A stretch of 64,000 nt of DNA from Sphingomicrobium sp. (GTDB lineage: Bacteria; Pseudomonadota; Alphaproteobacteria; Sphingomonadales; Sphingomonadaceae): NCBI GenBank assembly GCA_039919075.1, contig JBDSGJ010000005.1, positions 46,927-110,926 on the forward strand, in the 5' to 3' direction. Every line of letters starts with the position of its first letter. Position 1 is the stretch's first letter. The notes below the pieces were generated by a model that was not told the DNA's origin, searched no databases, and saw nothing but the letters and a program-made list of their open reading frames with translations. Below, piece by piece: positions 47,374 through 64,000 of the stretch. A program made the position numbers and the translations under genes.

Positions 47374-47437
47374 GATTTTGCCGACGACCGCTGTCGACCC
47401 ACTTGCAGACGTTGAGCACTGAGCTAACTTGGCCAAC

Positions 47438-48183: not shown

Positions 48184-48408
48184 ATGCTCGCCATGTGCCC
48201 CGATTGTGAACGCTGCGGCGCCGACCTGCCTGCCTCGGCGGCAGGCGCGTTTATCTGTTCGTTCGAATGCACCTTCTGCGCCGAGTGTGCCGAGGCGCTT
48301 GACGATCGCTGTCCCAATTGCGGGGGTGAGCTGGTCGATCGTCCGGCGCGGTCGAAGGCTAATCTCGCCAAACATCCCGCCTCGACGGAGCGGAAATTCG
48401 CCTCGTGA
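48184..48408 (+). CDS. DUF1272 family protein
   Basis: CERC...ICSFECTFCAECAE...CPNCGGELV.RP. Confidence 0.85.
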   Translation: MLAMCPDCERCGADLPASAAGAFICSFECTFCAECAEALDDRCPNCGGELVDRPARSKANLAKHPASTERKFAS

Positions 48409-49580: not shown

Positions 49581-49602
49581 AGGCCAGCCGCAGCACATCC
49601 AT

Positions 49603-49682
49603 CATCCCGGGCCCGACCCGGGACCTACCTATCTTTCTTGGCCTGGTGCAAGATAAAGGTAGGCCCCGGATCAAGTCCGGGG
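49603..49682. repeat. REP-like composite palindrome (casposon target, left part)
   Basis: Hairpins TCCCGGG-ccga-type/CCCGGGA, CCTACCT...AGGTAGG and CCCCGGA-TCAAG-TCCGGGG; continues as CCGGATCAAGTCCGGGGTGACG at 63486. Confidence 0.75.
49666..49680 (+). repeat. Left target-site duplication CCGGATCAAGTCCGG
   Basis: Identical to 63486-63500. Confidence 0.9.
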
Positions 49683-49722
49683 GGTATAGTGATATGACGA
49701 AATCGATGGGTAGGTGACCACA
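49681..49722 (+). repeat. Left terminal inverted repeat
   Basis: GGGGTATAGTGATA-N19-GTGACCACA. Confidence 0.9.
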
Positions 49723-49937
49723 GTCCGCATTGGCTGTGCGGCGTTTTGTTATCAGCGCGGTAGCTCTGTAAGCGGCCCGTCGGCTCGCCTCACCTCGTCG
49801 GCGTGACCGTGACGGAAACAGCACCAATTCTTCAATGGATAGTTTTGTTGTTAATTATTGGCACTCCAGCTTCCTTTCCGCTCGCAGACCTGCTTAACAT
49901 TGTTGCGCTGCACGTGTTTTTTGGAAGGACGCCTAAA

Positions 49938-50162
49938 ATGAGGCTACTGCGATCGCTAGCCTTCGCGACGGTCGTTTGTAGTGCGTCTTCGGCGCTTGCT
50001 ACGGAAACGATTGCATATACTTATGATGCACGAGGCCGGGTGATAAAGGTCGTTCGGACGGGTACGATAAATAACAACCTCACCTACGATTACACCTTCG
50101 ACAAACCCGACAATCGGACCCGGGTTAAGGTGACTAATTCGCCAAATCCTCCGCCGCCATAA
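49938..50162 (+). CDS. Small secreted single-YD-repeat protein
   Basis: Signal peptide MRLLRSLAFATVVCSASSALA, then ETIAYTYDARGRVIKV...YTFDKPDNRT. Confidence 0.7.
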   Translation: MRLLRSLAFATVVCSASSALATETIAYTYDARGRVIKVVRTGTINNNLTYDYTFDKPDNRTRVKVTNSPNPPPP

Positions 50163-50203
50163 TCACTAACTGTTTTTTTTCGGCTGTGTGGGGGGGGCGA
50201 GTG

Positions 50204-53200
50204 ATGTTGGAATTTCGTCGGGTCAGCTTATTGCCCGCAAAGCGGCTTTTTTCGCTTGCCGCGCTTCTCTCGATTGCCCTCGCCGCCCCGAGCCATGGGC
50301 AAAGCGCGGGACCCGTAGCCAGCCCGCCTACTCGGCTAAACATCGATCAAAATGGTGTCGATGTTGTGTCGGGCACATTCGATATCCAACAAACCGATGT
50401 GGCCATCGGTCCACCCACGGGCGGCCTTCAGTACGTTCGAACGTCACGCGGTAGCGGCTGGCTAAACCCGTATTTCGGGACAATTAAAGTTTCAGGGTCG
50501 CAACGGATTGTCAGTATCGGCGGGCAGTCAACCACCTTCACGCTGACCGGTTCGGTCTACGTTTCGGATCAGGGCACCGGTGCCACGCTGGCCTACAACT
50601 CCTCAACACTCATTTATACATATACAACGCCTAATGGCGTTGTGGCGACCTTCGAGCCATTGATAAACACGAAAGTCCAATACACCGCTTACGCCGCGAC
50701 GTTAACAAAGCTCAAGTATCCGTCGGGTCTTGAACTCACAATGACCTACCGATTCCAAAATAACTGTGTTCGGGTCGGTAGTATTTGTGACGGTGGGGCT
50801 ACCAAGCGCGTTGCGCGTCTTCAATCGGCTAACTCGAATACGGGCTACCAACTAAAATTCGAATATGCCTACAATCCCAGTGATACACCGCCGTTCGATG
50901 TCGATCTCCTTGATAGCTGGTACCAACTCACCAGCGTCACGGGCCTCAATAACGCAGTCGAATATTGCGCGCCCTCCAGCAGTGTTTGCACCTACGTCAA
51001 TAGCTGGCCCAAGGCGCAGTACACAACTGACGGGCTGCAGGTTACGGACCCGCTCAATCGAGTGACCAAATACACTAAGGTAGCCAGTCGAATCACCGCC
51101 GTTCGGCGACCGTCGAGTGCCACAGATAACCTCACGCTGAGCTACGATGCGAATGCGCGGGTCGCCACTTTTTCAGACGGCGCTGGGGGTTGGACGTACG
51201 GCTACTCCGATGTGGGCAACGTCCGCACCACGACCGTCACGGATCCCGCCGGACATAACCGCATTATCGTTTCCGATCTTACATTGCTTCGTCCTACCGC
51301 AATCACGGACGAACTGGGTCGCACTACCAACTATCAATATGATGCGAATGGCCGTGTCACACGCGTCACACTTCCAGAGGGTAATTATACCAGTTTCACT
51401 TACGACGCGCGTGGGAACGAGACCCAGGCGACTTCGGTTGCGAAGGCGGGTTCGGGCTTGACTGATATAGTCGCCACCGCCAGCTATCCAGCAACGTGCA
51501 CGAATGTTGTCACATGTAACCAGCCGTCGTCGGCAACGGATGCTCGAGGAAACACCACCGACTATGTTTACGACCCGACTCATGGCGGTGTGACGAGCGT
51601 AACGTTACCTGCCCCGTCAGTTGGTGCGGTACGGCCGCAAACCCGATTCAGCTACACGCCTCTCTACGCTTGGTACAAGAACAGTGCAGGCACGATCGTC
51701 CAGGCGACATCGTCAGTTTACGAGCCTACCTCGACGTCGTCTTGCCAGTCGCTTGCTAGCTGCGCGGGCGGGTCCGATGAGGTCAAGCGAACGTTGACCT
51801 ACGGCACGTCGGGAGTCGCGAACAATCTTCTTCCGACAACATCATCGTCAGGGTCAGGGGATGGCCTACTAACTTCGACGACCACAAGTGTGTGGGATAT
51901 GTATGGTAACCCCTTCACGGTAGACGGGCCACTTGCCGGAACGGCAGACACGACGCGATTTCGGTATGACCTCGCACGTCAATTGACTGGAGTCGTCGGG
52001 CCGGATCCCGACGGCGCGGGCTCACTCAAAAATCGTGCAATGAGAAATACCTACAATCTCGATGGCCAGACGACATTAGTGGAGCGCGGCACTGTCAACA
52101 GTCAAAGCGATCCTGACTGGACGGCCTTCGCGACCTTGCAACAGGTTGCCACCAGCTACGACGCTCAGGGGCGGCGGGTAAAGGAAAGCGCGACCGCTGG
52201 CGGGACGACCTATGCGGTCACGCAATACAGCTACGACAGTATGAGTCGCGCCGATTGCACAGCAGTACGGATGAACAGCGCGGTGTTCGGTTCGCTGCCA
52301 GCCTCGGCCTGCACCGCTGGAACGCCGGGAAGCTTTGGAGCGGATCGAATCAGCAAGATGACTTACGATTGGGCGAGCGAACCTACGATATTGCAGTCCG
52401 CGCTTGGCACTGTCGACCAGGCCAATGACGTGACGCTGACTTACAGCAACAATGGCAAGAAAGCCACTTTGACGGACGCAAACGGAAATCTCACAACCAA
52501 TGAATATGACGGCTTCGATCTGCTGCTGAAAACGCGCTTTCCCTCGCCCACCGTGCCCGGAACGAGTTCGACGACGGACTATGAGCAGGCAACTTATGAT
52601 CCGGCGGCAAACGTAACGCAGAGACGTCTGCGTGACGGGCAGCTGATTGGCCTTACTTACGACGCACTCAATCGCGTCACAGCCAAGGATTTGCCGGGAG
52701 CCGAACCCGACGTCGCCTACACGTATGACAATCTGGGGCGCTTGTTGACTGCATCCCAGACTGGCCAGACGCTAACCTACTCATACGACGCACTTAGCCG
52801 CACCTTGTTGCAAGGTGGGCCGCTCGGGACAATGGCAACGCAATGGGACCTGGCCGGGCGGCGCACGCGGCTGACCTATCCGGACGCCTTCTACGTCACC
52901 TACGACAATCTTGTCACCGGTGAGGTGACAGCCATCCGCGAAAATGGAGCGGTCTCGGGCATCGGTGTACTGGGGGCGTACGCGTACGACAATCTGGGGC
53001 AGCGCTTGTCGCTTGTCAGAGGGAACGGAACTGCCAGCACTTATGGCGATGACTCAGTATCGCGCTTGATCTCGCTAGCGCATGACCTGTCGGGGACGAA
53101 CAATGACCTTACGGTGGGCCTAACCTACTCACCTGCAGCGCAGATTGCGACACGGACAGCGAGCAACGATCTTTATGCGTGGGGCGGGCATTATAATCGC

Positions 53201-54409
53201 GACATCATCGAAACGCCCAATGGATTGAACCAGTTGACTGTTCAGGGAGCAACATCACTGACCTATGACGGTCGCGGCAACACGTCGGCGGTGGGCGCTG
53301 CGAGCTATGGTTATTCGTCGGAGAATCTCCTGACTTCCGGTCCCGCCGGAGTGACTCTCAACTACGATCCGGCGCAGCGGTTGTATCAGACGGTGGGCGC
53401 CTCGACGACGCGGTTCGGCTATGATGGCGTGGAGATGATCGGGGAATATGATGGCAGTGCCGCGCTGCAGCGGCGCTATGTGCGCGGGCCGGGCAGCGAC
53501 GAGGTCCTTGTATGGTACGAAGGCAGTGGCACGGTCGATCGGCGCTGGGTCTATCAGGACGAGCGCGGCTCGACGATCGCCATCGCCAATGCCAGTGGTG
53601 CGCTCACCAATGTGTTGAGCTACGATGAATATGGCTCCCCGGCGACGGCTAATGTCGGGCGGTTTCAGTATAGCGGACAAATGTGGTTGCCCGAGCTTGG
53701 AATGGCCTATTACAAGGCGCGCATCTACGCGCCCGGTCTCGGGCGATTCATGCAGACCGACCCGATCGGCTATGCTGCTGGGATGAATCTCTACGCCTAT
53801 GTCGGGGGCGACCCCGTCAACTTCGGAGACCCTGACGGATTGTGCAGCAACAAGATCGCCGAGACCACCGACCCGAAGTGCCTTGCGCAAGACGGCAATG
53901 GAGGAATCTGGGATCGCGGGGAGTGGCGTCCGGATATACCTGTGGTGGGCAAGCCCTTCCAGCCTGGCTTTAGCGCGGGGACGACGTTTGGATCGGCGGT
54001 CGGCTATCAAATTCCTAGCGGCAACGGGAACGCAGGGACCGGCGTCGAAATGGCTTGCGTTGGACCGCTAAGAGCGCTTGCTGGAGCGTGTGCTCGCGCC
54101 TTGAACGACGTATTGAAGAGAGTTCTTCCTGAGGTAAAAGTGCCCACGCTGCCACCCGGTGTGACGCCCCGGCAATTCGGTGACGCGGCAGGCTTCGGCC
54201 GGTCACTAAAGGACCTACCCCTGCGGAGTGCAGACGACGTAGCAAACTCTGCAAACAGACTTCAGTCGATGGGTTTTACATCCAACGACGTCGCAGCGTG
54301 GCGGAATTTCTACCAGGATCAGTCATGGCGGGTGCCACAGAATCTCAGTGCGGCACATAGAGCCGGCCTTCTGGACAGAATATGGTGGAACATGAAGCTC
54401 CCATTTTGA
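50204..54409 (+). CDS. RHS/YD-repeat polymorphic toxin with signal peptide
   Basis: Many YD repeats (YDANGRVT, YDALNRVT, YDNLGRLL); core end GRFMQTDPIGY...NLYAYVGGDPVNFGDPDG followed by a variable C-terminal domain of about 190 aa. Confidence 0.92.
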   Translation: MLEFRRVSLLPAKRLFSLAALLSIALAAPSHGQSAGPVASPPTRLNIDQNGVDVVSGTFDIQQTDVAIGPPTGGLQYVRTSRGSGWLNPYFGTIKVSGSQRIVSIGGQSTTFTLTGSVYVSDQGTGATLAYNSSTLIYTYTTPNGVVATFEPLINTKVQYTAYAATLTKLKYPSGLELTMTYRFQNNCVRVGSICDGGATKRVARLQSANSNTGYQLKFEYAYNPSDTPPFDVDLLDSWYQLTSVTGLNNAVEYCAPSSSVCTYVNSWPKAQYTTDGLQVTDPLNRVTKYTKVASRITAVRRPSSATDNLTLSYDANARVATFSDGAGGWTYGYSDVGNVRTTTVTDPAGHNRIIVSDLTLLRPTAITDELGRTTNYQYDANGRVTRVTLPEGNYTSFTYDARGNETQATSVAKAGSGLTDIVATASYPATCTNVVTCNQPSSATDARGNTTDYVYDPTHGGVTSVTLPAPSVGAVRPQTRFSYTPLYAWYKNSAGTIVQATSSVYEPTSTSSCQSLASCAGGSDEVKRTLTYGTSGVANNLLPTTSSSGSGDGLLTSTTTSVWDMYGNPFTVDGPLAGTADTTRFRYDLARQLTGVVGPDPDGAGSLKNRAMRNTYNLDGQTTLVERGTVNSQSDPDWTAFATLQQVATSYDAQGRRVKESATAGGTTYAVTQYSYDSMSRADCTAVRMNSAVFGSLPASACTAGTPGSFGADRISKMTYDWASEPTILQSALGTVDQANDVTLTYSNNGKKATLTDANGNLTTNEYDGFDLLLKTRFPSPTVPGTSSTTDYEQATYDPAANVTQRRLRDGQLIGLTYDALNRVTAKDLPGAEPDVAYTYDNLGRLLTASQTGQTLTYSYDALSRTLLQGGPLGTMATQWDLAGRRTRLTYPDAFYVTYDNLVTGEVTAIRENGAVSGIGVLGAYAYDNLGQRLSLVRGNGTASTYGDDSVSRLISLAHDLSGTNNDLTVGLTYSPAAQIATRTASNDLYAWGGHYNRDIIETPNGLNQLTVQGATSLTYDGRGNTSAVGAASYGYSSENLLTSGPAGVTLNYDPAQRLYQTVGASTTRFGYDGVEMIGEYDGSAALQRRYVRGPGSDEVLVWYEGSGTVDRRWVYQDERGSTIAIANASGALTNVLSYDEYGSPATANVGRFQYSGQMWLPELGMAYYKARIYAPGLGRFMQTDPIGYAAGMNLYAYVGGDPVNFGDPDGLCSNKIAETTDPKCLAQDGNGGIWDRGEWRPDIPVVGKPFQPGFSAGTTFGSAVGYQIPSGNGNAGTGVEMACVGPLRALAGACARALNDVLKRVLPEVKVPTLPPGVTPRQFGDAAGFGRSLKDLPLRSADDVANSANRLQSMGFTSNDVAAWRNFYQDQSWRVPQNLSAAHRAGLLDRIWWNMKLPF

Positions 54410-54427
54410 GGCGAGGGAGATAGATCA

Positions 54428-54631
54428 ATGATAGTGACTATATCGAATGTGGACGATGCTGACTTTTCAGTGGTTGTGGAGCCGTACGCCGAAGAGCGAC
54501 CGTTGCCAAGGAAGTCCTCAATCAAGATCGAAATCTTATCAATTGCATTGAGTGATTATGAGATTGTTGTTGGCGATGCTGTTATATCTTTATTTATACC
54601 ATCGGATGCAAAGTATAAGTTTATCGACTGA
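54428..54631 (+). CDS. Candidate immunity protein
   Basis: Acidic 67-aa ORF with a GGGAG RBS, 18 bp after the RHS stop, AT-rich. Confidence 0.6.
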   Translation: MIVTISNVDDADFSVVVEPYAEERPLPRKSSIKIEILSIALSDYEIVVGDAVISLFIPSDAKYKFID

Positions 54632-54762
54632 TACAAGCAATTAACCAAGTTGATCTATTCGTATATATGCAAACCCAGTTAGAATTTATTTTATGCAAAG
54701 GATGGAAACGTTCGCTTTAACAAATGGTCAATTAACCCATTGTAGCTTGATCTTGCAATCGG

Positions 54763-57700
54763 TCAGGTTTTGGAGGGGGGACTACACGGCACTGTGTGGG
54801 GAGACTCCGGTGCCGTTTCGGAACCATGGGTTGTGTGGGTTGAGCGCTCATTCGATGACTTCAGTTTACGTCGCAGGTTCGACGGATCGATCTCAAGCCG
54901 CCGCGCAGTTGCTCGAAGTCCGTCACGTCTCACGGAGACCCGAAGATGGCCAAGTTCGGCCTGCCGTTCGCCACTAAACTTAGCTGCTAGACGTCGGGCC
55001 GTTGGCAATCGCCTCGTTACTTTCTCCGCCAGCTTTTTGATCTTAGGAGATTCCGGGTCTGCCACGAGTGCCTTCAGGCGAGAAATTGGAATGCCAATCA
55101 GCCTCGACCCGGTCGCGTCACCAAAGTCAAACAGATAGGATCGCAGCTCCTCGGCTACTTGGTCGGGTGACGCGCCATAAGCGACGAGGCTGTCTGGATT
55201 GAGCCCAAGGATGGCTAGCCGCTGCCAGTCGTTCGATTCCTTGCCGATATGGATGACGTGACCGGCGTGGATATGGCGCCGCCTCGTCGTGCCCCGGTCC
55301 CAGTAATCCCCGTTTAGGAACTTCGACTCAGGTTGAAGATAGTATTGGGCGAGTGCCTCAGCGTAGGTTTTGAGCGCGTCACTCGAAATCGGATCACCGC
55401 TGATTCGATCAAATGCCCCCCCTATCGCCTTAGCGTTAGACGAATCGAAGGGCGCAATTGGCCTGATGTCCGTTCGCTTCAACCGCTTCGCCCGGCGTTC
55501 GCTATCGATTACGCTTTCGACCGGCGCATCCTTCTTCGCCGTCATCGCCAGCAAAAAGCCGAATGGCTTCACCTGACTGCGATACGGCTTTCCCTTATTG
55601 AATTTCGAGAACCATTTGAGCAATTCGGGGGTAGTAGCCCCATAGCGGCTAATTGCCGGTCGCCTAAGGCCTGGATGAAAATCCATTGGCACCCTATTAG
55701 GATTGCCGCTCAGTGCAGCACAAATGATTTGATACCAAACATCCGCGTGCCAGCGCTCAATCCCTTTGCCCAAGACGGACCTATCCGGCGCCAGTATTGA
55801 TTTTGGCGCATCCGTTTCTGGATAGGGTGCTAAATGCTGCCCTAAGCCGTGAGCCGATACCTTTCGCATCATCGGCTTTTCGTCCGCTCCTAAATTAAAA
55901 AGAGCATAGCGTTTCGACGATATGGCCCAGCAGAAAAGCGGCTCCGGCAAATTGCTTTGAAGTCCCGAATTCACATCCTCAGTTTTTAGGATCGAACCTG
56001 GAAAACAATAGGGGTTCAGCGCCTCGAACCAATTCACAATCGACGCAACGCGGCTTTCAAATTCGGACGGATTCATCCCATCAGGCTTTGCAATCGCAAT
56101 GCTATCAGTATCGCAAAAAGCCCAATCCATTCCGCTTTCGATTGTCAGCGTCTCGGCAATTGCCAACATTAGCCGAGCGGCGCCTGTAATGAGTGTGCCG
56201 AGCAATGGATGAAAATACGAGCCGGGCATTTCCGATTTATCGGTTTCAAAGCTAAACGGCTCGCACGTAGAGCTATGCACTGTCGTTTTCGATTTGGAAG
56301 CGCGGCTATCGACATTGACCTCGATATAGATTCCATAGCTGACCGAATTGGCCGCAATCTTCAGCGCGTTCTGTTCAGTGTCCAGCGAATCCAATTCATT
56401 GCCAGTCGCCCCGGCCTTCCGGCCCTGAGTGGCCTTTCGCAATTCGATTAGCCGTTTGAAGAAATCGTCTTCGTAAGGTTCGATATGATAGTCCGGATTG
56501 CCAGCGATATCGATCGGTCGGAGACCGTCTTGCGGTATTCCCGCCTCAAACGAGATAGCTTCCAAAACTTCGAGCGATTTGCCGGTCAAAAGCTTTGAAG
56601 CGATGCAGTCCGCCAGCGTGAACCACAGCGGGGTTGCAGAGGTTAGGTGATTGGCGCCGATGGTCGTTTGCGCCTCGCCGCTGTACGCAGCGCGGACTGG
56701 GAAGATTTCCCCCGCCGCTTGGACGCGAACAAGAGTGGTCAGGCCGAGCCAGATTGGCTTGGACTGGAGCACAAGCAAGTCGATCGCTTCCAGCAGCTCC
56801 CTTGTCTCCGTTGTCGAGTCGCGCCACGTAACCCCTTCAGCCGCCACAAATCGCCATAGATTCATGAGCGTGCAAACTGTCGGGTACATCGATAGGAAGT
56901 CGCAAAGGATGATCTGCCGCATCTCGCGCCGAATGCGAACCTCGGAGCGCCCGCCGAAATAGCTGCCCATGATCTTGGCGAGCAGGTGGCGGGGAAATTC
57001 CGGTTGCACGTCGCGCCATGGGCGAACGCCCATTTCCCTGAGATAGCCCTTGCCGATGCTGGCTTCGCTGTAAATTTTCTCTGGTATGGTTCGCGAGAAA
57101 CCAAGCTTGGCGAACCGCCGTTGTAATTCGGCATAGCATTCCCAGGTCGTTTGAACGTCGCCGACCGCATAGCGGACCATATCCTCGGTGATTGGCCCGT
57201 TGAATTCATCGAATTCGATTTTGGGATTGGCTACTTTCAGGAAATTGCCCAAGCCTTGGAGACTAAAGCTTCTAGCAAACAAGGCTGAGGCCAAAGTCTT
57301 GACGTCAATGAAATGCCCGCGCCGGACTGGGATCGCCAGCCCACGATTGCGGTGACCGCGACCGTCCTTTTGACGCATCGGCGCCGAGAAGGCGATTAGG
57401 GCCGATCGGCGGGACAAATGCTTGACTCGGATATTGGGCCAGATTTTTTGCTCGGACAGTTTGAAGGTGAAGGCGCCCCGCATAGGAGCTTTGTCTTGGG
57501 CGAGCGGCGTCTTGGCCGTCCCATGGCTAATCGCTATGCGGGATATATCGAACGGAAGGTTAAATCCGACGATCGTTGCCCGGAGCATATAAGCCCGCTG
57601 GAAAAAGACTTCATCGACGAATTCAGTTCGCGTTCGCAGTTTGAGACCGTGCAAAGCCGCATGCTGACCGATGACCTCAAGTTCGGACGGCAAGACTCCC

Positions 57701-57954
57701 TCAGGATCGTAGAAGATTCCAGCTTCGTCCAATTCTTCGCCGCACCGAAATTGATAGGTGCCGAAGCGGAGCGCTTGCGCCGCATCGGTTGTAGTCTCGG
57801 TATCGAATATCAGCGTGAAGTCAGACGCCGGGAGTGCAGGCTTGCGCTCCTTGCGCGGCGGTTTGTTCGGGTCCGGCAAGATCGTGAACGTCGGTCCGGT
57901 ATACGCCCGCAGCGCGATTGGAAGAAAGTCCGTGATTGGGGGGATGTTGGACAT
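54763..57954 (-). CDS. polB: Family B DNA polymerase (casposon, probably protein-primed type) with C-terminal HTH
   Basis: ExoI FDTETT, ExoII GFNLPFD, ExoIII YAVGD; YFGGRSE; motif A CDFLSMYP; motif B KIAANSVSYG; motif C CDTDS. Confidence 0.93.
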   Translation of the reverse strand: MSNIPPITDFLPIALRAYTGPTFTILPDPNKPPRKERKPALPASDFTLIFDTETTTDAAQALRFGTYQFRCGEELDEAGIFYDPEGVLPSELEVIGQHAALHGLKLRTRTEFVDEVFFQRAYMLRATIVGFNLPFDISRIAISHGTAKTPLAQDKAPMRGAFTFKLSEQKIWPNIRVKHLSRRSALIAFSAPMRQKDGRGHRNRGLAIPVRRGHFIDVKTLASALFARSFSLQGLGNFLKVANPKIEFDEFNGPITEDMVRYAVGDVQTTWECYAELQRRFAKLGFSRTIPEKIYSEASIGKGYLREMGVRPWRDVQPEFPRHLLAKIMGSYFGGRSEVRIRREMRQIILCDFLSMYPTVCTLMNLWRFVAAEGVTWRDSTTETRELLEAIDLLVLQSKPIWLGLTTLVRVQAAGEIFPVRAAYSGEAQTTIGANHLTSATPLWFTLADCIASKLLTGKSLEVLEAISFEAGIPQDGLRPIDIAGNPDYHIEPYEDDFFKRLIELRKATQGRKAGATGNELDSLDTEQNALKIAANSVSYGIYIEVNVDSRASKSKTTVHSSTCEPFSFETDKSEMPGSYFHPLLGTLITGAARLMLAIAETLTIESGMDWAFCDTDSIAIAKPDGMNPSEFESRVASIVNWFEALNPYCFPGSILKTEDVNSGLQSNLPEPLFCWAISSKRYALFNLGADEKPMMRKVSAHGLGQHLAPYPETDAPKSILAPDRSVLGKGIERWHADVWYQIICAALSGNPNRVPMDFHPGLRRPAISRYGATTPELLKWFSKFNKGKPYRSQVKPFGFLLAMTAKKDAPVESVIDSERRAKRLKRTDIRPIAPFDSSNAKAIGGAFDRISGDPISSDALKTYAEALAQYYLQPESKFLNGDYWDRGTTRRRHIHAGHVIHIGKESNDWQRLAILGLNPDSLVAYGASPDQVAEELRSYLFDFGDATGSRLIGIPISRLKALVADPESPKIKKLAEKVTRRLPTARRLAAKFSGERQAELGHLRVSVRRDGLRATARRLEIDPSNLRRKLKSSNERSTHTTHGSETAPESPHTVPCSPPSKT

Positions 57955-58316
57955 TAGAAATCTCCCGAGGGTGTTGGTGCAGAGCGTTCGATAAGCTGTT
58001 CGCCAAAGGTCGTGAGCTTTTCGAGGATGCGTCGAAGCATGTCGGCCAGGCCAAGCAGAAAGCGGCCAATGGCGTGCAACGTCGCATCGGCGTTCGGATC
58101 GAAGGCCGGATGGTCCTTCTGGGTATCGGATAGCTTGCGGTGGCAATTGCGACATGCGATCACGGTGGTGTCATCGCAGCCGAAATCGGCGGCGTGATGA
58201 AGCTCCATGCAGCGCCAGTCATCTTCGCCGCAAATGCAGCAGCTCGGTTCATTCGATCCTAGCGCTTCGAGCCGACGCTGCTTTCGCTGTTCCCACTTAA
58301 GTTGATCTTCGGTCAC
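57954..58316 (-). CDS. HNH endonuclease-like Zn-binding protein
   Basis: CCICG...ELHH...IACRNCHRK; GGAG RBS before the GTG; its stop overlaps the polB ATG (TAATG). Confidence 0.8.
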   Translation of the reverse strand: MTEDQLKWEQRKQRRLEALGSNEPSCCICGEDDWRCMELHHAADFGCDDTTVIACRNCHRKLSDTQKDHPAFDPNADATLHAIGRFLLGLADMLRRILEKLTTFGEQLIERSAPTPSGDF

Positions 58317-58329
58317 GTTAGTTCTCCTT

Positions 58330-58899
58330 TCAAATGATGAGACGGTAGATTTCATGGAAAACTTCATCGCCCTGCGCGGCCATGCGGTGCAGGCGGTTGG
58401 GGTCAGTTTCGAGGGGATGCATCTTGCCATGCACATCGCGGACCGAACGGCCTTCGAAGGGTCGGAGCAGGTCGATATCGTTCGAGTTCAGAAAGGCGCC
58501 GACTGCTGCCGAGTGCTGGCCATTGAGGGAGGCTTGCTCAAAGCCGTCGAGCGTAAGTTCTTTCGAATCGCCCTCAGTTATGACCGTCATGCGACGCGGG
58601 CGGTTGTCGGTGATTTGCCAAAGGCGCCCGGTCCGTTGTGCAAGGGAGTTGTGGCGCAGGAAACGGCGGAATCGCTCGGGTGCGACCCCGGCCTGTTTCG
58701 CAGCGGCGGCTTGGCGACCCGTTTGGCGTAGGAGCTTCAGCGCCGCTTCAAGCTTTTGGTCGGTAATGAAAGGCTGAGCGCGAACGGGCGACTCGATCGA
58801 TCGAGCGTGGCCGCGAGCCTGCGACCGACTCAGGCCGCGCTTGGCGGCGTTCGCGATGCGGCGCTGATATTCAGCCTGATAGTTGCGAGTCGTTGCCAT
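58330..58899 (-). CDS. Hypothetical DNA-binding protein (HTH-like)
   Basis: AAAAKQAGVAPERFRRFL helix-turn-helix-like segment; first gene of the operon with HNH and polB. Confidence 0.6.
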   Translation of the reverse strand: MATTRNYQAEYQRRIANAAKRGLSRSQARGHARSIESPVRAQPFITDQKLEAALKLLRQTGRQAAAAKQAGVAPERFRRFLRHNSLAQRTGRLWQITDNRPRRMTVITEGDSKELTLDGFEQASLNGQHSAAVGAFLNSNDIDLLRPFEGRSVRDVHGKMHPLETDPNRLHRMAAQGDEVFHEIYRLII

Positions 58900-58973
58900 G
58901 CCCCAATTGGAGCTGGAGTCAGGACGCTACGCGAATCGAATAAAGGAAAGAATTACGAACAGTTTTGTCTAGA

Positions 58974-59633
58974 TCAATTCGATTTCCAAAAGACCTTCAA
59001 ATGCCGATCAATAGCTCTATTACTTGGAGCGGAATTCGTAAAAATATGAGGAAACATTATTAGACCATGGCGATGAACAGCGGACGATTGTCGGCCCGGC
59101 TTCAATCCTTCTATTTGACTCTTGATCGATTCTGCGATTGCAAAAACATAGCTTTTAATTGAGGGGCGTCCTATTTTGGTTTCCTGTAGTTCAATGGCCC
59201 CAGCGACACGCACCTTGGCATAACGGTATTCGCCGTCGCGGAATTCTGACTTTCGGTAATCAATAAATTTGTGTTGAAAGAGAAAGGGCGGAACAAGCTC
59301 ATGTGGTGCATCTGACCCTTTTGAGGTGAGAAAACCAATTGCAATTAGCCGACCGCTTTCGAGAGCTTCGATAAATTGGTTTTGCTGACTGCAATATGAT
59401 TCGGTCCTTATCGCCAAATCGACCTGCAAATTTTCTGCGGCCTTAAAAATTAGCTCCGCATCGCTACCGGCAGTCGCGAATTTATGCCGCGAATATTGCG
59501 AATTATCCCTGATTTGGCCTTCAACTTTTGCTAGTCGGGATTCGTCCGGATTTGGCACGAACGTCGCCAATATCTTGCTTAGCGGCGTGCCGCTTTGCCA
59601 CAAACGGGACAGGGTCGCGGTGCTTAGTGGCAT
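58974..59633 (-). CDS. Hypothetical protein (start could extend to 59702)
   Basis: Long open frame in an AT-rich stretch; C-terminal GRPS followed by a helical segment. Confidence 0.6.
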   Translation of the reverse strand: MPLSTATLSRLWQSGTPLSKILATFVPNPDESRLAKVEGQIRDNSQYSRHKFATAGSDAELIFKAAENLQVDLAIRTESYCSQQNQFIEALESGRLIAIGFLTSKGSDAPHELVPPFLFQHKFIDYRKSEFRDGEYRYAKVRVAGAIELQETKIGRPSIKSYVFAIAESIKSQIEGLKPGRQSSAVHRHGLIMFPHIFTNSAPSNRAIDRHLKVFWKSN

Positions 59634-59729
59634 GAGGGCGGCGGCTGAATAGTCATTGGGAATCCGGTGATAAGGGGCGGATTTTAAAGACCCGTTAACC
59701 ACCTAAACATGATGTGAATTCAGCTCTTT

Positions 59730-60851
59730 ATGTTAAAGGTCGGTATGCTCCATGGAATTGAAATTCGATCCGACGAAATTGCCGACGAGTGGGCGATCCG
59801 CTCTGAGTTCTGGCAAGGCGAAGCGGCTTCCCCGAAACGGGTTCGTCGCAAGCGAGAGCGCAACGCGCAACCCTTAATTTTATGCGGACATGGCGTGTCG
59901 CTCCGGATTGAAAATGGCGCGCTCGTAATTCGGGACGGCTTCACGCATTACCCACAAGAGCAGGCGCGGTATCGGTTTTTCCCACGCGACCTAGAGCTTC
60001 CAACGCGCATTCTCTTGCTGGACGGTAGTGGAACCCTCTCGTTCGACGTATTGAACTGGCTTGCCGACCAAGGCGTTGCACTGGCCCGCATCAAATGGAC
60101 TGGCGAGGTCGCGACAGTGGCGGGCGGGAATGGTTACGCGGCGGACCCCGCGAAATTGGATTGGCAGAAGGAAACTCGTGGCAACCCCGCGAAACGCCAC
60201 GCTTTTGCAGCCAATCTTATTCGCCTGAAAGTTGTTGCCAGCCTCGATACGCTTGAGCGCTGCATCCCGGACACTCGCGCCCGCCAAATGGCGACCGGAA
60301 AAGCAAGGGCGGCGATCGAACGACTCCAAGTCGAAGTTTTCCCTGACTTGAATGCGATATTTGCGGTCGAAGGTGAGTGTGCGTCATCCTACTTCGCGGC
60401 GTGGCACGGACTGCCGGTTCATTGGATTGGGCTTTCTAGGCGTCCCGTTCCCAATGATTGGCAGTGCTACTCGGGGCGCAGCTCGCTCGCAGTTGGCATC
60501 AAACCGGAGAACCGGAACGCCTCACACCCTATCAACGCGATGTTGAATTACGCTTACGCGGTGAAACTCTCGCAGCTTCAAATCGACACGATCGCGGGCG
60601 GGTTCGATCCCAGACTGGGGATCATGCATAACAGTCACAAGGGCACCCCGGCGCTGGTTTTGGATTTCATCGAGCTAGAGAGGCCCCGCGTTGACGCAAA
60701 GATATTGGAACTGGTCGCAACCCGCAAATTTGCGGCGGCTGATTTCATCGTAAAGGATGATGGTGTCTGTCGCCTGTCGCCGCAGCTAGCGCGGGCCGTC
60801 GCCATCCTTACGGTCCAATGCAAACCGTTTGGACTTCCGACCACGCTTTAA
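59730..60851 (+). CDS. cas1: Stand-alone Cas1 (casposase)
   Basis: Cas1 catalytic-type motifs EGECASSYF, INAMLNYAY, GFDPRLGIMH, LVLDFIELERPRVD; N-terminal LRIENGALVI beta domain; no cas2 or array nearby. Confidence 0.92.
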   Translation: MLKVGMLHGIEIRSDEIADEWAIRSEFWQGEAASPKRVRRKRERNAQPLILCGHGVSLRIENGALVIRDGFTHYPQEQARYRFFPRDLELPTRILLLDGSGTLSFDVLNWLADQGVALARIKWTGEVATVAGGNGYAADPAKLDWQKETRGNPAKRHAFAANLIRLKVVASLDTLERCIPDTRARQMATGKARAAIERLQVEVFPDLNAIFAVEGECASSYFAAWHGLPVHWIGLSRRPVPNDWQCYSGRSSLAVGIKPENRNASHPINAMLNYAYAVKLSQLQIDTIAGGFDPRLGIMHNSHKGTPALVLDFIELERPRVDAKILELVATRKFAAADFIVKDDGVCRLSPQLARAVAILTVQCKPFGLPTTL

Positions 60852-61085
60852 GCCCGCTTCCAAGGCACCCCCCTCAGCAAGCGGCACGAACAGCTCGCTT
60901 AGGTGAACGCCCAATGTCGCGGCGAGTTTGTCGAGGACATCAACGCTCGGATTCTCCTCAGCGCGTTCCACTCCACCTAAATAGGAACGGTCCACTCCAG
61001 CATCAAAAGCAAGCCGTTCTTGCGAAACATCACTCGCAACGCGAATGCGCCTTAGGTTTCGTGCAATGATATCGCGCCCGCGCAT
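60786..61085 (-). CDS. XRE family HTH regulator
   Basis: NLRRIR...VSQERLA..AGVDRSYLGGVERAEENPSVDVLDKLA. Confidence 0.9.
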   Translation of the reverse strand: MRGRDIIARNLRRIRVASDVSQERLAFDAGVDRSYLGGVERAEENPSVDVLDKLAATLGVHLSELFVPLAEGGALEAGLKRGRKSKRFALDRKDGDGPR

Positions 61086-61174
61086 AGGCAGGCCAAAGCT
61101 ATTTACGGGACATTAAACCACGGGCGATATCCATCTAATTAGAGTTTCAAGGTCACTCTGATGGAGATGTCACC

Positions 61175-61765
61175 ATGTTTTTCCTTCCCCTGCTGTTAGC
61201 GACAATATCCCAAGCCCCTGCTTCCCCTCGTTCCTCGTCCCTCCCCAACGCCGATAATGGTCGAAATGCCAAGGTCATATCTGCAACCCTAGCGAGAGAC
61301 ATAGATGGGGTAGCGCTTGGCGCGTCTATCGGCAGCGTTCGCAAGATGATGACGCTCACGTCGATCGGCGGCGAGCAATTCCAAGGCCGAATGGCGTCAG
61401 TCGATTTTGACCTTGAGTTCACGCCCTTAGGGCGGTTGTTCCGCATAAGCTCGAAACAGAATTTGGGGCAATTCGAGATAGATAAGGATTTCAACCAGAC
61501 CTTAAACCGCAGACTAGCTACAAAATACGGTGTCCCGCGCGGCGCTTCGATCGACACCCGCTATTGGAAGCTAATTCAGGACGTCGAAGATGCCGATGGG
61601 AAACAGCATCCCTTTGTCGTCAACTGGTTGAATGTTGATGCATCGCGCGGCTACGATGGGGTCGAGTTGACGATGACGATGATCGATTTCCGCTACCTCA
61701 TGGCCGATAGGGCCAGATTGAACCACAAACCTCGCAATCAGGCCGAGGGGAATATTTCATTCTGA
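61175..61765 (+). CDS. Hypothetical secreted protein
   Basis: Hydrophobic N-terminus MFFLPLLLATISQAPA; 196-aa open frame. Confidence 0.6.
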   Translation: MFFLPLLLATISQAPASPRSSSLPNADNGRNAKVISATLARDIDGVALGASIGSVRKMMTLTSIGGEQFQGRMASVDFDLEFTPLGRLFRISSKQNLGQFEIDKDFNQTLNRRLATKYGVPRGASIDTRYWKLIQDVEDADGKQHPFVVNWLNVDASRGYDGVELTMTMIDFRYLMADRARLNHKPRNQAEGNISF

Positions 61766-61895
61766 AGTGTCCACTATCACATGACGGACGAGCCGAGCCA
61801 TAGACTGCACGGGCCAATACACTTTAGGTTGCTAAAATCAGTTAGCTTCACAGTAGAATGGCAATTAATTTCTGATATGCTTTGCGACCAGAAGG

Positions 61896-63362
61896 GTGAA
61901 TGATTTGGCCAAAGGCAGACGCAACCAGCGAGTATCCACGGTTTATAAACTCAAACGGTCGCAGGCGACTTTAGATTTTGTGGACGTAGATGTAGCTCGG
62001 GACACGAAGGTCTTTGTTAGCCCGCGTGCGCTCACGCTTATGCAAACAGATTGGGGCGATGGCTGCGTTTCACTCGTTCAAAACTTCTTCGAAACCGTCC
62101 TTCAGCGAATCAAGGATGGAGATGACGCGGGTGCCGAAGCTCTTTTGCAGGAATTAAGGGAGCCTAATGAAACACATCTTGGGCTTTCGAGTAGGGAGTC
62201 GCGCGGCCGCGCGTTGGGCAATGAATCCGCGCATGATGTTTGGTCTGCGCTCAGCCAGAGTGCGGCCGCAAAATCGGGCCTCATTCACGACCTCGAAGAC
62301 ACGGTGCTTCTGATTCACGGTATTGGGGTAGATATTGTCTCGGATGTGACCACCAATATCATACGCGGCCCGTTGATCGCTTACACTCAAGAGCAATGCA
62401 GACAGCTTGGCATTCCGCTCATTGCGGACGTGCCATCGGGACCGATTTGGCACCCGGCAAGGCGAGAATGGATTGCCAAATTTGTTGAACTTCCAATGCC
62501 TAAGACCGGGAAACTTTTGCTTGTTCCAAAGGCGATCGTCCGGCGCACGTCACTTTATGACATGCAGGAGTATTATCGTCATTTCATGCTTGAACACATG
62601 CAACGTGAAGAACTTAAGGCCGGTTCGGCCCTAATAACTATGTTGAAGAAGGGGCCAAAAGTTCACAAAAGCGATCTGATTGATAAGTATGGTGGCGACA
62701 AGAGCGCCGTAATCGAGCAAACGATGAAATATCCCGATGTCTTAGACGACTATCGTCGGGAAAAAGGCAAACGTCCGTTCCTACCCCTCAGTCACGAAGA
62801 CCTCGAAAACCTTGAAGGCAGCTCGCCCGTGGATTGGGATTCGCTCCTAGACGCGGTGACATCGCTGCCGACTGGCACCCAGGACGCATCTTCCTACGAA
62901 AAGGCTATCGAAGCGCTTCTTACTGCACTCTTTTACCCCGATTTGGTTCATCCTGTATATCAACATGAAATCCATGACGGTCGAAAACGGATCGATATCA
63001 AATATACCAATATGGGCGGAGCCGGATTCTTCGCTTGGTTATCTAGGCACTACACAGCGCCCCAAGTTTTCGTGGAATGCAAAAATTACGGTGGCAAAGT
63101 CGCAAACCCAGAACTCGATCAGCTCGCTGGTCGGTTTGGTCGCAGTCGAGGCAATTTCGGAATTCTTGTTTGCCGTCAGTTCGATAACACGGCTCGATTT
63201 CAGCAAAGCTGTTGCGATACCGCTAGGGACGATCGGGGTTATATCGTTGCACTCGACGACGACGATTTGAAGGCACTCGTGGAGGCTCGCAAGGCCAATG
63301 ACGAAGAAGTTTATCGAGATTTACCCCTACTAAGAGAGCGTTTCGAGCAACTCATTGCATAG
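61896..63362 (+). CDS. Hypothetical protein with a C-terminal PD-(D/E)XK restriction-endonuclease-like domain
   Basis: YEKAIEALL...RIDIKY...VFVECKNYG...LDQL.GRF motif order. Confidence 0.7.
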   Translation: MNDLAKGRRNQRVSTVYKLKRSQATLDFVDVDVARDTKVFVSPRALTLMQTDWGDGCVSLVQNFFETVLQRIKDGDDAGAEALLQELREPNETHLGLSSRESRGRALGNESAHDVWSALSQSAAAKSGLIHDLEDTVLLIHGIGVDIVSDVTTNIIRGPLIAYTQEQCRQLGIPLIADVPSGPIWHPARREWIAKFVELPMPKTGKLLLVPKAIVRRTSLYDMQEYYRHFMLEHMQREELKAGSALITMLKKGPKVHKSDLIDKYGGDKSAVIEQTMKYPDVLDDYRREKGKRPFLPLSHEDLENLEGSSPVDWDSLLDAVTSLPTGTQDASSYEKAIEALLTALFYPDLVHPVYQHEIHDGRKRIDIKYTNMGGAGFFAWLSRHYTAPQVFVECKNYGGKVANPELDQLAGRFGRSRGNFGILVCRQFDNTARFQQSCCDTARDDRGYIVALDDDDLKALVEARKANDEEVYRDLPLLRERFEQLIA

Positions 63363-63443
63363 GACGGATTGCATCTGGCTAGCGGCCACCAAAGTTCAAA
63401 TGGTCGGGAACGGCGGGCACACCGACTACCCCATCGCCGCAAG

Positions 63444-63485
63444 TGTGGTCACACTCGCTCGGTTCAGCAGCTATCACTATACCCC
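63444..63485 (-). repeat. Right terminal inverted repeat
   Basis: TGTGGTCAC-N19-TATCACTATACCCC, the reverse complement of the left-end architecture. Confidence 0.9.
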
Positions 63486-63500
63486 CCGGATCAAGTCCGG
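63486..63500 (+). repeat. Right target-site duplication CCGGATCAAGTCCGG
   Basis: Identical to 49666-49680. Confidence 0.9.
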
Positions 63501-63518
63501 GGTGACGAAGAGAGGTAG

Positions 63519-64000
63519 ATGAAACGCCCCTGTTTCAAGATCGAGCGCCAGTTCGCCGAACCGCTGGCCGGGGTCGACGAAGCGGGCTGCGCGCCGCTCG
63601 CCGGGCCCGTCGTGGCGGGGGCGGTTGTGCTCGACCGCGATCATTTTCCACGCGGGATCGATGACAGCAAGAAGCTCGATCTCGAAACGCGCGAGGCGAT
63701 CTTCGGGCGATTGCAGAAGGTCGCGCGGATCGGGGTCGGGATTGCCTCAGTGGAGGAGATCGACACGCTCAACATCTATTGGGCGCGAATGCTGGCGATG
63801 AAGCGCGCGGTGGAAGCGCTGGGATTCGAACCGGCCTTCGTGCTGGTCGACGGCAACCGCCTGCCGCGCTGGGAGCGGACCGAGGCCAAGGCGATCGTCA
63901 AGGGCGACACCAAGTGCCGTTCGATCGCCGCCGCCTCCATCGTTGCCAAGGTCACGCGCGATCGGATCATGCTTGAGCATAGCCGGACCTATCCGGGCTA
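63519..64000 (+). CDS. rnhB: Ribonuclease HII (partial, runs off the window end)
   Basis: Manual translation: AGVDEAG..PLAGPVVAGAV, DDSKKL, LVDGN, KGD....SIAAASIVAKVTRD. Confidence 0.95.
   Translation, partial: MKRPCFKIERQFAEPLAGVDEAGCAPLAGPVVAGAVVLDRDHFPRGIDDSKKLDLETREAIFGRLQKVARIGVGIASVEEIDTLNIYWARMLAMKRAVEALGFEPAFVLVDGNRLPRWERTEAKAIVKGDTKCRSIAAASIVAKVTRDRIMLEHSRTYPG

Follow-up and report, generated by a model that had tools for sequence, protein, structure and literature searches.

A bacterial casposon and its relatives inserted at the dyad of short GC-rich palindromes: evidence that points to a previously undescribed targeting rule

Introduction

In a 64-kb stretch of Sphingomicrobium DNA, hereafter the window, a casposon of 13,805 bp (positions 49681–63485) lies between two copies of a short hairpin. 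This arrangement raises the question of whether the hairpin belongs to the element or to the host, and how a Cas1-family integrase (casposase) would come to duplicate it. To our knowledge, casposases have been characterised only from the archaeal families 1 and 2. The characterised archaeal enzymes use one asymmetric site per genome, beside a tRNA or EF-2 gene. A literature search for palindrome-centred casposon targeting found no description of it. The insertion of the window casposon and of about 40 relatives, described below, is centred on palindromes and points to a targeting rule that has not been described previously.

Structure and Gene Content of the Casposon

The casposon ends in perfect 14-bp inverted repeats, with 14 of 14 nucleotides matching. 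The left one, GGGGTATAGTGATA (49681–49694, plus strand), is the terminus of dozens of related elements as well, and the right one, TATCACTATACCCC (63472–63485, minus strand), adjoins the right hairpin copy. A conserved subterminal motif, GTGACCACA (49714–49722, plus strand), is mirrored by TGTGGTCAC at 63444–63452, placing the motif at the same distance from either end, and most related elements carry (T/G)GACCACA about 32–36 nt inside both ends. The GC content of the casposon interior is 0.45–0.61, compared with 0.63–0.68 in the flanks.

The casposon codes for Cas1, a family-B DNA polymerase (PolB), an HNH-like protein, a helix-turn-helix (HTH) protein and cargo. The casposase (59730–60851, plus strand; 373 aa) matches Pfam Cas_Cas1 over residues 51–357 (1.5e-30) and scores 78.9 bits against TIGR00287, for which the cutoff is 71.7. 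It has 1654 homologues at E ≤ 1e-10, an alignment of 27 sequences shows invariant acidic and His residues, and the protein is too short for a fused C-terminal HTH domain. The putative polymerase gene (54763–58155, minus strand) has a weak Pfam match (3.5e-3), and the consensus of 22 sequences contains all six PolB motifs, namely FDTETT (Exo I), GFNLPFD (Exo II), YAVRDV (Exo III), DFLSMYPT (A), KIxANSTSYG (B) and CDTDS (C). The alignment profile matches archaeal PolB structures with an E value of about 3e-3, and the single sequence gave no match against the PDB. A small conserved protein (57954–58436, minus strand), the true start of which probably lies further downstream, has a CxxCG...ELHH...CRNCH motif of zinc-finger type in its alignment; Pfam and PDB searches gave no support for an HNH identity, and its profile produced only chance matches in the PDB. 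The PolB and HNH assignments are thus candidate ones, made from motifs and weak profile scores.

Two conserved core genes to which no function is assigned (58330–58899 and 58974–59702, both minus strand) have no family matches and are syntenic in the related loci L001, L003 and L004. An XRE-type HTH protein (60786–61085, minus strand; HTH_3, 3.1e-13) is syntenic in L001 and L004. A conserved core protein of 196 aa without assigned function (61175–61765, plus strand) has orthologues of 194 aa that follow the HTH gene in L001, L002 and L004. The cargo comprises an RHS/YD-repeat protein of 1407 aa with a variable C-terminal domain (50186–54409, plus strand; RHS_repeat, 1.4e-22; Rhs_assc_core, 2.4e-21), preceded in another frame by a short ORF with a weak RHS-repeat match (49803–50162, plus strand), and a protein with an Mrr-type nuclease domain (61896–63362, plus strand; Mrr_cat, 9.9e-5), which PADLOC places in the candidate defence family PDC-M36A (1e-41). 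The element is a casposon, as shown by its Cas1, the six PolB motifs, the inverted repeats at its ends and the duplicated target. It is an intact bacterial element, probably inserted recently and probably of the family 3 type.

Duplicated Hairpin and Empty Site

The casposon is flanked by an exact 19-nt direct repeat, CCCCGGATCAAGTCCGGGG, at 49664–49682 and 63484–63502. This repeat is a hairpin with a 7-bp stem and a 5-nt loop (CCCCGGA-TCAAG-TCCGGGG). When three mismatches are allowed, these two copies are the only ones in the window (chance expectation 0.03), and the approximately 50 kb of host DNA in the window contains no second copy. To the left of the left copy lies part of a host repeat unit (49603–49663), which consists of the hairpin CCCGGGCCCGACCCGGG (49606–49622) and a central imperfect hairpin, ACCTACCT...AGGTAGG. 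The right copy is followed by TGACG (63503–63507), the conserved tail of the repeat family, and then by the start codon of rnhB at 63519.

Because G is both the first base of the element termini and the last base of the hairpin, the duplication can be read symmetrically as 11, 13, 15, 17 or 19 bp. In relatives with flanks other than G (L044, L046, L047 and L053), the terminus has exactly four Gs, and therefore the target site duplication (TSD) in the window is best read as the 15-bp segment CCGGATCAAGTCCGG at 49666–49680 and 63486–63500, so that the last two Gs of the left hairpin copy (49681–49682) are the element terminus. That both sides carry a full 19-bp hairpin is due only to the GGGG/CCCC ends of the element, which replace the outer stem bases. 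When the element and one copy are removed, three hairpins form in the restored spacer (–25.3 kcal/mol, z = –4.3), a stability equalled by none of 200 shuffled sequences. The original prediction, made from the window alone, had proposed a casposon flanked by a duplicated hairpin, a three-hairpin spacer upon its removal and a duplication of 15, 17 or 19 bp. The first two proposals are confirmed, the flanking duplication also by the empty site described next, and the third is narrowed to 15 bp, the relatives' terminus of four Gs speaking against 17 and 19.

The restored spacer aligns to the orthologous thiD–rnhB spacer of a related metagenome-assembled genome (L091; GCA_038319435.1), which is uninterrupted and has a single hairpin copy, CCCGGATCAAGTCCGGG, proving the insertion of the casposon. 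The left part of the repeat unit in the window aligns with the doublet CCGTCATC-CCGGGCTTGACCCGG...CCCGGATCAAGTCCGGG-ATGACG of L091. In a metagenome run (X1), sequencing depth is 3–4 times lower over the casposon than over the flanking DNA, and about 14 kb is skipped by two contigs; with anchors of 20–26 nt, this is weak evidence for an empty site.

The empty site bears directly on the question of ownership. A directly repeated palindrome also reads as an inverted repeat, here with arms of 31 nt, and the published terminal inverted repeat (TIR) of HenMar-C1 begins with such a palindrome, so that the hairpins might be regarded as the element's own palindromic termini with a duplication of 0–1 nt, as HenMar-C1 was annotated in 2014. 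For the window this is refuted by L091, in which the hairpin is already present in the unoccupied site. Moreover, different hairpins stand beside identical termini, asymmetric loops have the direct rather than the inverted orientation on the two sides, and free hairpin copies are common in host DNA, making such an assignment hardly credible.

The Hairpin as a Dispersed Host Repeat

The hairpin is found at 6–19 places per Sphingomonad replicon of 0.09–1.76 Mb in stringent BLAST searches, and nearly all plasmid matches lie under no annotated feature. There are 26 free copies in 1.45 Mb, compared with 3–8 in shuffled sequences. N. capsulatum has three exact intergenic copies within 40 kb, and the hairpin is intergenic in the window and in L091 as well. 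The metagenome contains at least 127 copies in 121 contexts, none of which is occupied. Inverted doublets are present in the window, L091, L008, L003, L033 and N. capsulatum (8172 + 8224) and at 24 of 120 metagenome loci, and a doublet of about 110 bp is present or absent among close relatives. The stems vary by compensatory changes, with targeting kept.

Like REP, BIME and REPIN sequences, the hairpin is a short GC-rich extragenic palindrome that forms inverted doublets with a short linker. The copy number of such sequences is typically above 100 per genome. An Rfam search with the doublet gave only sub-threshold matches to miRNA hairpins, and hence the doublet corresponds to no known RNA family; a literature search with the repeat sequence itself returned no paper. 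These dispersed, intergenic copies, often in inverted doublets, bear out the earlier suggestion of a REP-like repeat that offers many landing sites.

Targets of Related Casposons

Loci of relatives were taken from one representative genome per species; some of the insertions could be inherited rather than independent, and their flanks differ in every case inspected. A search with the 12-nt terminus, allowing up to two mismatches, found ends only in L004. The termini of L001 and L003 have diverged, and their ends were recovered through the hairpin instead. Both ends are available for 34 related elements. In 17 of these 34, a perfect stem of at least 7 bp is centred exactly on the duplication, compared with 0.075% of 584,364 background axes; this count used the largest possible TSD, a reading that mis-centres L020, L024, L064, L068 and L071. 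When the symmetry test was anchored at the GGGG joint, 63 of 78 element ends (about 52 sites) adjoined a perfect GC-rich hairpin, compared with 7.8% of random positions. In 47 of these 63 ends the joint lies 7.0 or 7.5 nt from the dyad, and the parity of the duplication tracks that of the loop. When the set is limited to relatives whose Cas1 is at least 51% identical, 36 of the 40 sites have a perfect palindrome whose centre coincides with that of the duplication. The original prediction had named relatives at unrelated, non-palindromic targets as the finding that would speak against it, and the 36 dyad-centred palindromes are the reverse of this. Palindrome-centred insertion is a rule of the clade and not a single case. 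Non-palindromic targets are found in L010, L030 and L036/L037, which are among the closer relatives, and in half of the more distant elements. L046 and L053, which have the same GGGG terminus, likewise sit at non-palindromic sites without G. Because such targets form a minority, symmetry is preferred but not obligatory.

Every observed insertion has survived, repeats and terminators offer safe locations, and the hairpin copies in the metagenome are overwhelmingly unoccupied, as would be expected if integration were random and only insertions in harmless intergenic repeats persisted. Selection of this kind could not, however, set the joints at two fixed distances from the dyad or centre half of the two-ended duplications on stems as rare as those above. 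Even if all such palindromes were intergenic, they would make up less than about 1% of intergenic axes. Integration at random with later selection is thus very improbable.

Near-identical termini stand next to different hairpins, even in one genome (L008/L009 and L024/L079), and an identical hairpin is used by several elements that differ in genome and locus. Targets include at least three classes of hairpin as well as terminator-like hairpins; the target of L080 is the 3' end of a tmRNA according to Rfam, and ARAGORN found no tRNA there. The family therefore targets a geometry rather than one repeat. The earlier proposal that the casposase may recognise a multicopy palindromic repeat is supported as regards the palindrome but not as regards a single repeat family. 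Relative to the asymmetric loop and tail, elements lie in either orientation, in a ratio of about 12 to 5 as counted by eye. In L054, tandem elements have one target copy in common.

That at least three unrelated hairpin classes share one geometry, and that stems vary by compensatory changes while targeting persists, would also be consistent with recognition of an extruded cruciform or single-stranded hairpin, such as might form in supercoiled DNA or on the lagging strand, rather than of a symmetric duplex sequence. E. coli Cas1–Cas2 is reported, in work cited in PMC5137440, to favour sites near inverted repeats that form cruciforms. The solved casposase complex clamps an ordinary duplex target (PMC6977970), the cuts keep a fixed distance from the dyad and fall within the stems instead of at their ends, the duplication prefers C as its first base and G as its last, and stems of 5 bp, which extrude poorly, are used as well. 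Structure-specific targeting is therefore possible but clearly less likely than reading of the duplex.

The base preference itself suggests another route to these sites. In 92% of ends a G immediately precedes the joint, and C occupies positions –14 to –17 in 67–82%. Overlaps between TIR and TSD have been noted and complementary overhangs proposed (Krupovic et al. 2014, PMC4046053). The CCCC-3' ends or overhangs of the element might thus require only C and G runs about 15 bp apart, with GC-rich palindromes merely the commonest CC..N..GG arrangement and the palindrome itself unread. Pairing at the targets, however, reaches the inner stem (GGA/TCC, GTG/CAC, CTCCCC/GGGGAG), far past the terminal runs. 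L046 and L053 have the same GGGG terminus, yet their sites lack a G/C run. Asymmetric pairs of a C run and a G run should also far outnumber perfect hairpins, yet they are seldom the site. Guidance by end homology is therefore unlikely.

Proposed Mechanism of Target Selection

The casposase probably joins the element to both sides of the dyad of a GC-rich palindrome, with a 15-bp duplication in a REP/REPIN-like target, following a rule of the clade. In the window, it would have attached the element by its two 3'-CCCC ends, one to each host strand and 15 bp apart, placing the joints symmetrically about the dyad of a short GC-rich palindrome, and gap filling would then have doubled the 15 bp. 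The target would have been one arm of a REP/REPIN-like inverted doublet between thiD and rnhB of a Sphingomicrobium-like host, where substitution of the GGGG/CCCC termini for the outer stem bases would leave a complete 19-bp hairpin on each side. Related casposases join 7 nt from the dyad at 4-nt loops, giving a 14-bp duplication, and 7.5 nt from it at 3- or 5-nt loops, giving one of 15 bp. Many different GC-rich hairpins are used, with a duplicated segment that begins with C and finishes with G.

The insertion and its empty site are established, as are the geometry of the joints, the recurrence of this geometry and the presence of the repeat in many copies. Beyond these findings, we infer that the casposase itself reads a two-fold symmetric site. 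The likeliest form of such reading would be a two-fold symmetric oligomer that meets the same half-site twice, without an asymmetric leader determinant. The M. mazei casposase binds its target as a pseudo-two-fold tetramer and works equally well on a symmetrised and on the native TSD (PMC6977970).

Implications

The proposed rule would be the first target rule for family 3 casposons. A Cas1-family integrase that measures its cuts from a dyad would have the property needed for the exact duplication of palindromic CRISPR repeats, and the debate over whether CRISPR repeats derive from casposon termini or from target duplications becomes testable at the bench with defined substrates. An integrase that homes to short palindromes independently of a leader could also serve as an insertion tool. 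The results suggest that at least one published casposon boundary, that of HenMar-C1, be redrawn.

A more speculative and rather doubtful extension is that palindromic CRISPR repeats descend from the host target and not from casposon termini. If so, an ancestral casposase would have doubled a palindromic REP-like hairpin at each insertion and rebuilt it on both sides, and an immobilised element would already have lain in a repeat-insert-repeat unit open to more insertions, as the tandem of L054 illustrates. The palindromic TIRs that have been cited as repeat precursors would then be misread duplicated targets.

Comparison with Known Casposons, CRISPR and Insertion Sequences

The window casposon resembles the family 3 elements HenMar-C1 and NitAL212-C1 (PMC4046053) in its core of Cas1 and family-B polymerase, its HTH protein and its intergenic insertion. 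The TIR of NitAL212-C1, GGGGTATG, is similar to the terminus in the window, both beginning with GGGGTAT, and the direct repeat of NitAL212-C1 is 14 nt long (PMC4046053). An N-terminal block of the window Cas1, PLILCGHGVSLRIENG, matches the printed HenMar-C1 sequence (supplement of PMC4046053), and Henriciella relatives with 41% Cas1 identity (L070 and L071) were recovered. An HNH endonuclease and an HTH protein are stated for all family 2 and 3 elements; no target rule is described for family 3, and HenMar-C1 was assigned a 1-nt duplication and a TIR containing a palindrome (PMC4046053). The window element differs in that the palindrome is the host target, the cargo consists of RHS and PDC-M36A-like nuclease genes, and HNH is represented by a motif only. 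For HenMar-C1, the published palindromic TIR probably represents a duplicated target that was misread.

Family 2 casposons (A. boonei and M. mazei) have a TSD of 14–15 bp and an adjacent leader-like tRNA segment (PMC5137440, PMC6614799, PMC6977970). They share with the window clade the duplication of 14–15 bp, a regenerated target that permits tandem elements and a two-fold symmetric enzyme–target complex, and in A. boonei a palindrome forms part of the target region. In family 2, however, the duplicated segment CCCCACTACGAGGAG is non-palindromic and the palindrome, formed by the TpsiC arm, is its neighbour. Integration there depends on an asymmetric sequence upstream, which results in a single site per genome and one orientation. 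In the window clade, the duplicated segment is the palindrome itself, many sites are eligible, and insertions have either orientation. The window casposase also differs from those of family 2 in having no fused C-terminal HTH domain.

CRISPR Cas1–Cas2 is homologous to the casposase, makes staggered attacks flanking an often palindromic segment and leaves the insert between two full copies, and its repeated use gives tandem arrays, as does that of the casposase in L054. In the window, by contrast, the element itself is inserted, and there is no Cas2, leader, array or spacer-sized insert; no cas2 or other cas family was found among the casposon ORFs, and no tandem or CRISPR-like array in 44000–64000. 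The duplication is 14–16 bp in the window clade and 25–50 bp in CRISPR. The original prediction had likened the product to a one-spacer array. Two full hairpin copies are indeed present, but they are only two, with a 13.8-kb element between them and no cas2. The parallel with CRISPR is an analogy.

REP, BIME and REPIN sequences serve as targets for IS1397, ISPpu9/10 and other insertion sequences (Tobes and Pareja 2006, PMC1525189; PMC12288879), which, like the window casposon, land safely in a palindromic repeat that is dispersed between genes in many copies. These insertion sequences are small and have DDE or DEDD transposases (IS3, IS110), whereas the window element is a self-synthesizing element of 14 kb with a Cas1 integrase. 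In the window clade, furthermore, cutting is symmetric with respect to the dyad, and hairpins from several unrelated families serve as targets.

Structure and Gene Content of the Element

The 13.8-kb segment interposed between the thiD–glyoxalase fusion gene (48405–49580) and the RNase HII gene (rnhB, ATG at 63519) is a casposon. Its GC content is 0.45–0.61, compared with 0.63–0.68 in the surrounding DNA. The element encodes a Cas1 homologue, the casposase (59730–60851; Pfam, 1.5e-30; NCBIfam TIGR00287, 78.9 bits, cutoff 71.7), and a divergent family-B polymerase of 1130 amino acids (54763–58155). Alignment of the polymerase with 21 orthologues reveals the complete set of family-B signatures (FDTETT, GFNLPFD, YAVRDV, DFLSMYPT, KIxANSTSYG and CDTDS), and its profile matches archaeal PolB structures (E about 3e-3). 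The casposon also encodes an XRE-type HTH protein, three conserved genes of unknown function and a small protein with an alignment-derived CxxCG..HH..CxNCH motif, for which profile searches found no supporting family or structure. The cargo consists of a toxin-like RHS/YD-repeat protein (49803–54409, counting a short upstream RHS fragment that is out of frame) and an Mrr-type protein (61896–63362) that scores 1e-41 against the candidate defence family PDC-M36A. No further cas genes were found by family searches of the element ORFs, and no CRISPR array by an array search of the region. The element is an ordinary casposon; what appears new is the target rule of its clade.

Cargo varies between elements and resembles conflict genes; the element at L003 carries McrBC and a reverse transcriptase (L003:1539–4828, 11823–13430). 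An internally deleted, non-autonomous derivative occupies the hairpin CCCCTGCTTTTGCAGGGG at L075:9379–11584, where two proper ends enclose a partial Cas1 gene within just 2.2 kb. In the window, the right end is located 33 bp 5' of the rnhB start codon (63486–63521). thiD and rnhB, neighbours in relatives, are probably co-transcribed there, and rnhB expression in the window may now depend on read-out transcription from the element.

The Duplicated Hairpin and the Empty Site

An exact 19-mer, CCCCGGATCAAGTCCGGGG, is present at 49664–49682 and 63484–63502, and both copies adjoin perfect inverted termini. There is no third copy in the 64-kb window with up to three mismatches (chance expectation 0.03). 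The termini open with a run of Gs, which allows readings of the duplication from 11 to 19 bp. The sites of the related elements L044, L046, L047 and L053, which have no flanking G, show that the terminus has exactly four Gs, and so the duplication is 15 bp (49666–49680 and 63486–63500) and the element spans 49681–63485. The GGGG/CCCC termini of the element rebuild the hairpin on both sides. Among the 15, 17 and 19 bp originally proposed, only 15 bp therefore stands.

When the element and one duplicate are removed, the spacer folds as three hairpins (z = -4.3), as originally noted. In the relative L091 (GCA_038319435.1; ThiD 90% identical), the thiD–rnhB spacer is uninterrupted, aligns with both window flanks and contains CCCGGATCAAGTCCGGG once, where the element is inserted in the window. 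The exact repeat, the inverted termini and this empty site together confirm that the casposon lies in a duplicated hairpin. The idea that the hairpins belong to the element is refuted, since the unoccupied L091 spacer already has one.

In L091 the hairpin is accompanied by an inverted partner, giving the host unit CGTCATC-hairpin'...hairpin-ATGACG. In six other relatives (L085–L090), thiD and rnhB are separated by 8 bp and the repeat unit is missing, indicating that the doublet of about 110 bp is itself lineage-variable. As judged from these alignments, the inverted-doublet unit (window 49581–49682 and 63503–63518) looks mobile or unstable. Read depth in the rhizosphere metagenome run X1 is 22–26x for the flanks and 5–8x for the element, and two contigs skip about 14 kb; this is weak evidence that fits the presence of the element in just part of the population. 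Judged by its ThiD homologues, the host lies near Sphingomicrobium. Elsewhere in the window there are a tRNA-Met (3710–3784), a SAM riboswitch (10906–11030, 70 bits) and an odd 96-nt tRNA-like ARAGORN call with a 2-nt 'anticodon' (17293–17388), which Rfam does not support.

The Hairpin as a Dispersed Repeat

Copies of the hairpin away from casposon ends occur at L001, L003, L006, L008 (three copies), L017, L024, L029 and L033, amounting to 26 in 1.45 Mb of analysed DNA compared with 3–8 in shuffled sequence. Inverted pairs are frequent among them, the stems vary by compensatory changes, and the TCAAG loop and GTGACG tail are conserved. With the hairpin and tail as query, BLAST finds 161 places in 33 records of complete plasmids and secondary replicons, mostly of Sphingobium and Novosphingobium, with a maximum of 19 in 611 kb and nearly all outside annotated genes. 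A 40-kb stretch of N. capsulatum contains three exact 19-mer copies, all intergenic, with the consensus AGCGGGA-CCCCGGATCAAGTCCGGGG-TGACGAA. A metagenome scan, with matches in at least 120 contigs (L093–L212), yields at least 127 copies in at least 121 distinct contexts, at least 24 loci having an inverted partner; among the matches listed, none adjoins a casposon end. Therefore, the repeat is dispersed, intergenic, palindromic and doublet-forming, like REPs and REPINs, and its copy number looks moderate. The predicted multicopy nature thus holds in other genomes, although the host DNA of the window (~50 kb) has no additional copy. A second 19-mer context, with GT(A/T)TCCA before and CAGGC after, accounts for 36 of the 127 copies among the matches listed, suggesting a second repeat family with the same hairpin, possibly from other taxa.

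Targets of Related Elements

Casposase homologues number 1654 at E<=1e-10, those with names being mostly from Sphingomonadales. Loci were obtained by exact-protein look-ups (4) and from representative genomes (80). An end detector that accepted inverted termini only with an immediately adjacent direct repeat located both ends of 34 elements. In the great majority, the duplication is a GC-rich palindrome. The hairpin of the window is also the target at L008 (Allosphingosinicella), L005 (Citromicrobium) and L012 (in reverse orientation), and with one change at L006 and L031. Other targets are CCCCGGCCGCGCGCCGGGG (L004), CTCCCCACTGGGGAG (L007, L009), CCCGCCTTCGCGGG (L025, L038, L079), CCCCGTGTCAAGCACGGGG (L020, and single ends in L015, L017 and L018) and the terminator-like AAAAG-CCCCGCCGAAGCGGGG-CTTTTTT (L049). 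Since the flanking DNA differs among them, the sites are separate loci. Two elements of one genome can occupy hairpins of different classes (L008 with L009; L024 with L079).

In 17 of the 34 elements, the duplication is centred exactly on a perfect stem of 7 bp or more; the share of background axes that qualify is 0.075% (n = 584,364, same loci). Likewise, a perfect hairpin adjoins 63 of 78 recognisable ends (about 52 sites) versus 7.8% of random positions. Selection alone is a disfavoured rival account of the sites that survive. The distance from the dyad to the joint is 7.0 nt in 18 ends and 7.5 nt in 29, and 4-nt loops accompany duplications of 14 bp, 3- or 5-nt loops those of 15 bp. The parity of the duplication thus tracks that of the loop, and so the cuts are set by the dyad rather than by a ruler from one side. 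G precedes the joint in 92% of ends, and C occupies positions -14 to -17 in 67–82%. Both orientations relative to an asymmetric loop are seen, about 12 to 5 as counted by eye.

Unrelated, non-palindromic targets are not the pattern among closer relatives, in agreement with the original prediction: the target is palindromic at 36 of 40 sites with Cas1 identity >=51%, and at 6 of 12 among remoter relatives. The use of a multicopy palindromic repeat by the casposase is supported as well; what the sites share is geometry, not one repeat family. In two Novosphingobium species (L036 and L037), the common target CCTCCGGCGGGCAA(A)GG is non-palindromic; either the insertion was inherited or a preferred site of another kind is involved. 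The 3' end of the tmRNA gene is a classical integration site, and the Fimbriimonadaceae element L080 (Cas1 36% identical) is inserted there (L080:2040–2105); the target gives a partial Rfam RF00023 match (E = 3e-8) with GGGGGTTCGAATCCCCCTACCTCCACCA visible, and ARAGORN calls nothing within it. At L054:5250–5295, two casposons lie head-to-tail with one 16-nt target copy between them (...ATCACTATACCCC|CTCTCCCGGGAGGGAG|GGGGTATAGTGATG...), and L047 has a similar end-to-end junction near 6796. In such tandems, the junction sequences indicate that the regenerated target site is used again.

Target Recognition and Comparison with Known Casposons

The casposase would read its target as two identical half-sites. 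In M. mazei, the casposase grips the target as a tetramer of pseudo-two-fold symmetry, and a symmetrised duplication is also accepted (PMC6977970). In the archaeal casposons of family 2, a fused C-terminal HTH is thought to read an asymmetric leader-like sequence, whereas the Pfam match of the window casposase covers residues 51–357 of 373 and leaves no room for such a domain. The two-fold complex and the lack of room for an HTH make the two-half-site reading plausible. Recognition of a cruciform by the casposase is a less likely rival explanation of palindromic targets. Another, also less likely, is guidance of integration by homology of the ends.

The rule of targeting a palindrome centre appears undescribed for this clade, and it is directly relevant to the question of how duplication of palindromic repeats by Cas1 enzymes arose. 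A search of the casposon literature of 2023–2026 found nothing on bacterial targets, a literature search for the repeat sequence did not find it, and a single searchable paper mentions casposons together with REPs, just in passing. IS elements are already known to target REPs (PMC1525189; PMC12288879). The 15-bp segment duplicated in A. boonei, CCCCACTACGAGGAG, is non-palindromic, and the palindrome next to it is the TpsiC arm of tRNA-Pro (PMC5137440). The published terminus of NitAL212-C1, GGGGTATG, with a 14-nt repeat (PMC4046053), agrees with the four-G terminus of the window's relatives. For HenMar-C1, a 1-nt direct repeat was reported, with 'TIRs' that open CCCCCTCTCCCG(G/C)ATCGGGAGGGG and continue with ATAAGGG (2014 supplement, PMC4046053). 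In the Hyphomonas relative L051, a host hairpin precedes the terminus GGGATAAGGG; in the Henriciella relatives L070 and L071, the hairpin is duplicated and the two loops are direct copies of each other. Because of these termini and loops, the palindromic 'TIR' published for HenMar-C1 is most likely a duplicated target, a hairpin of the host, after which comes the true terminus GGGATAAGGG.
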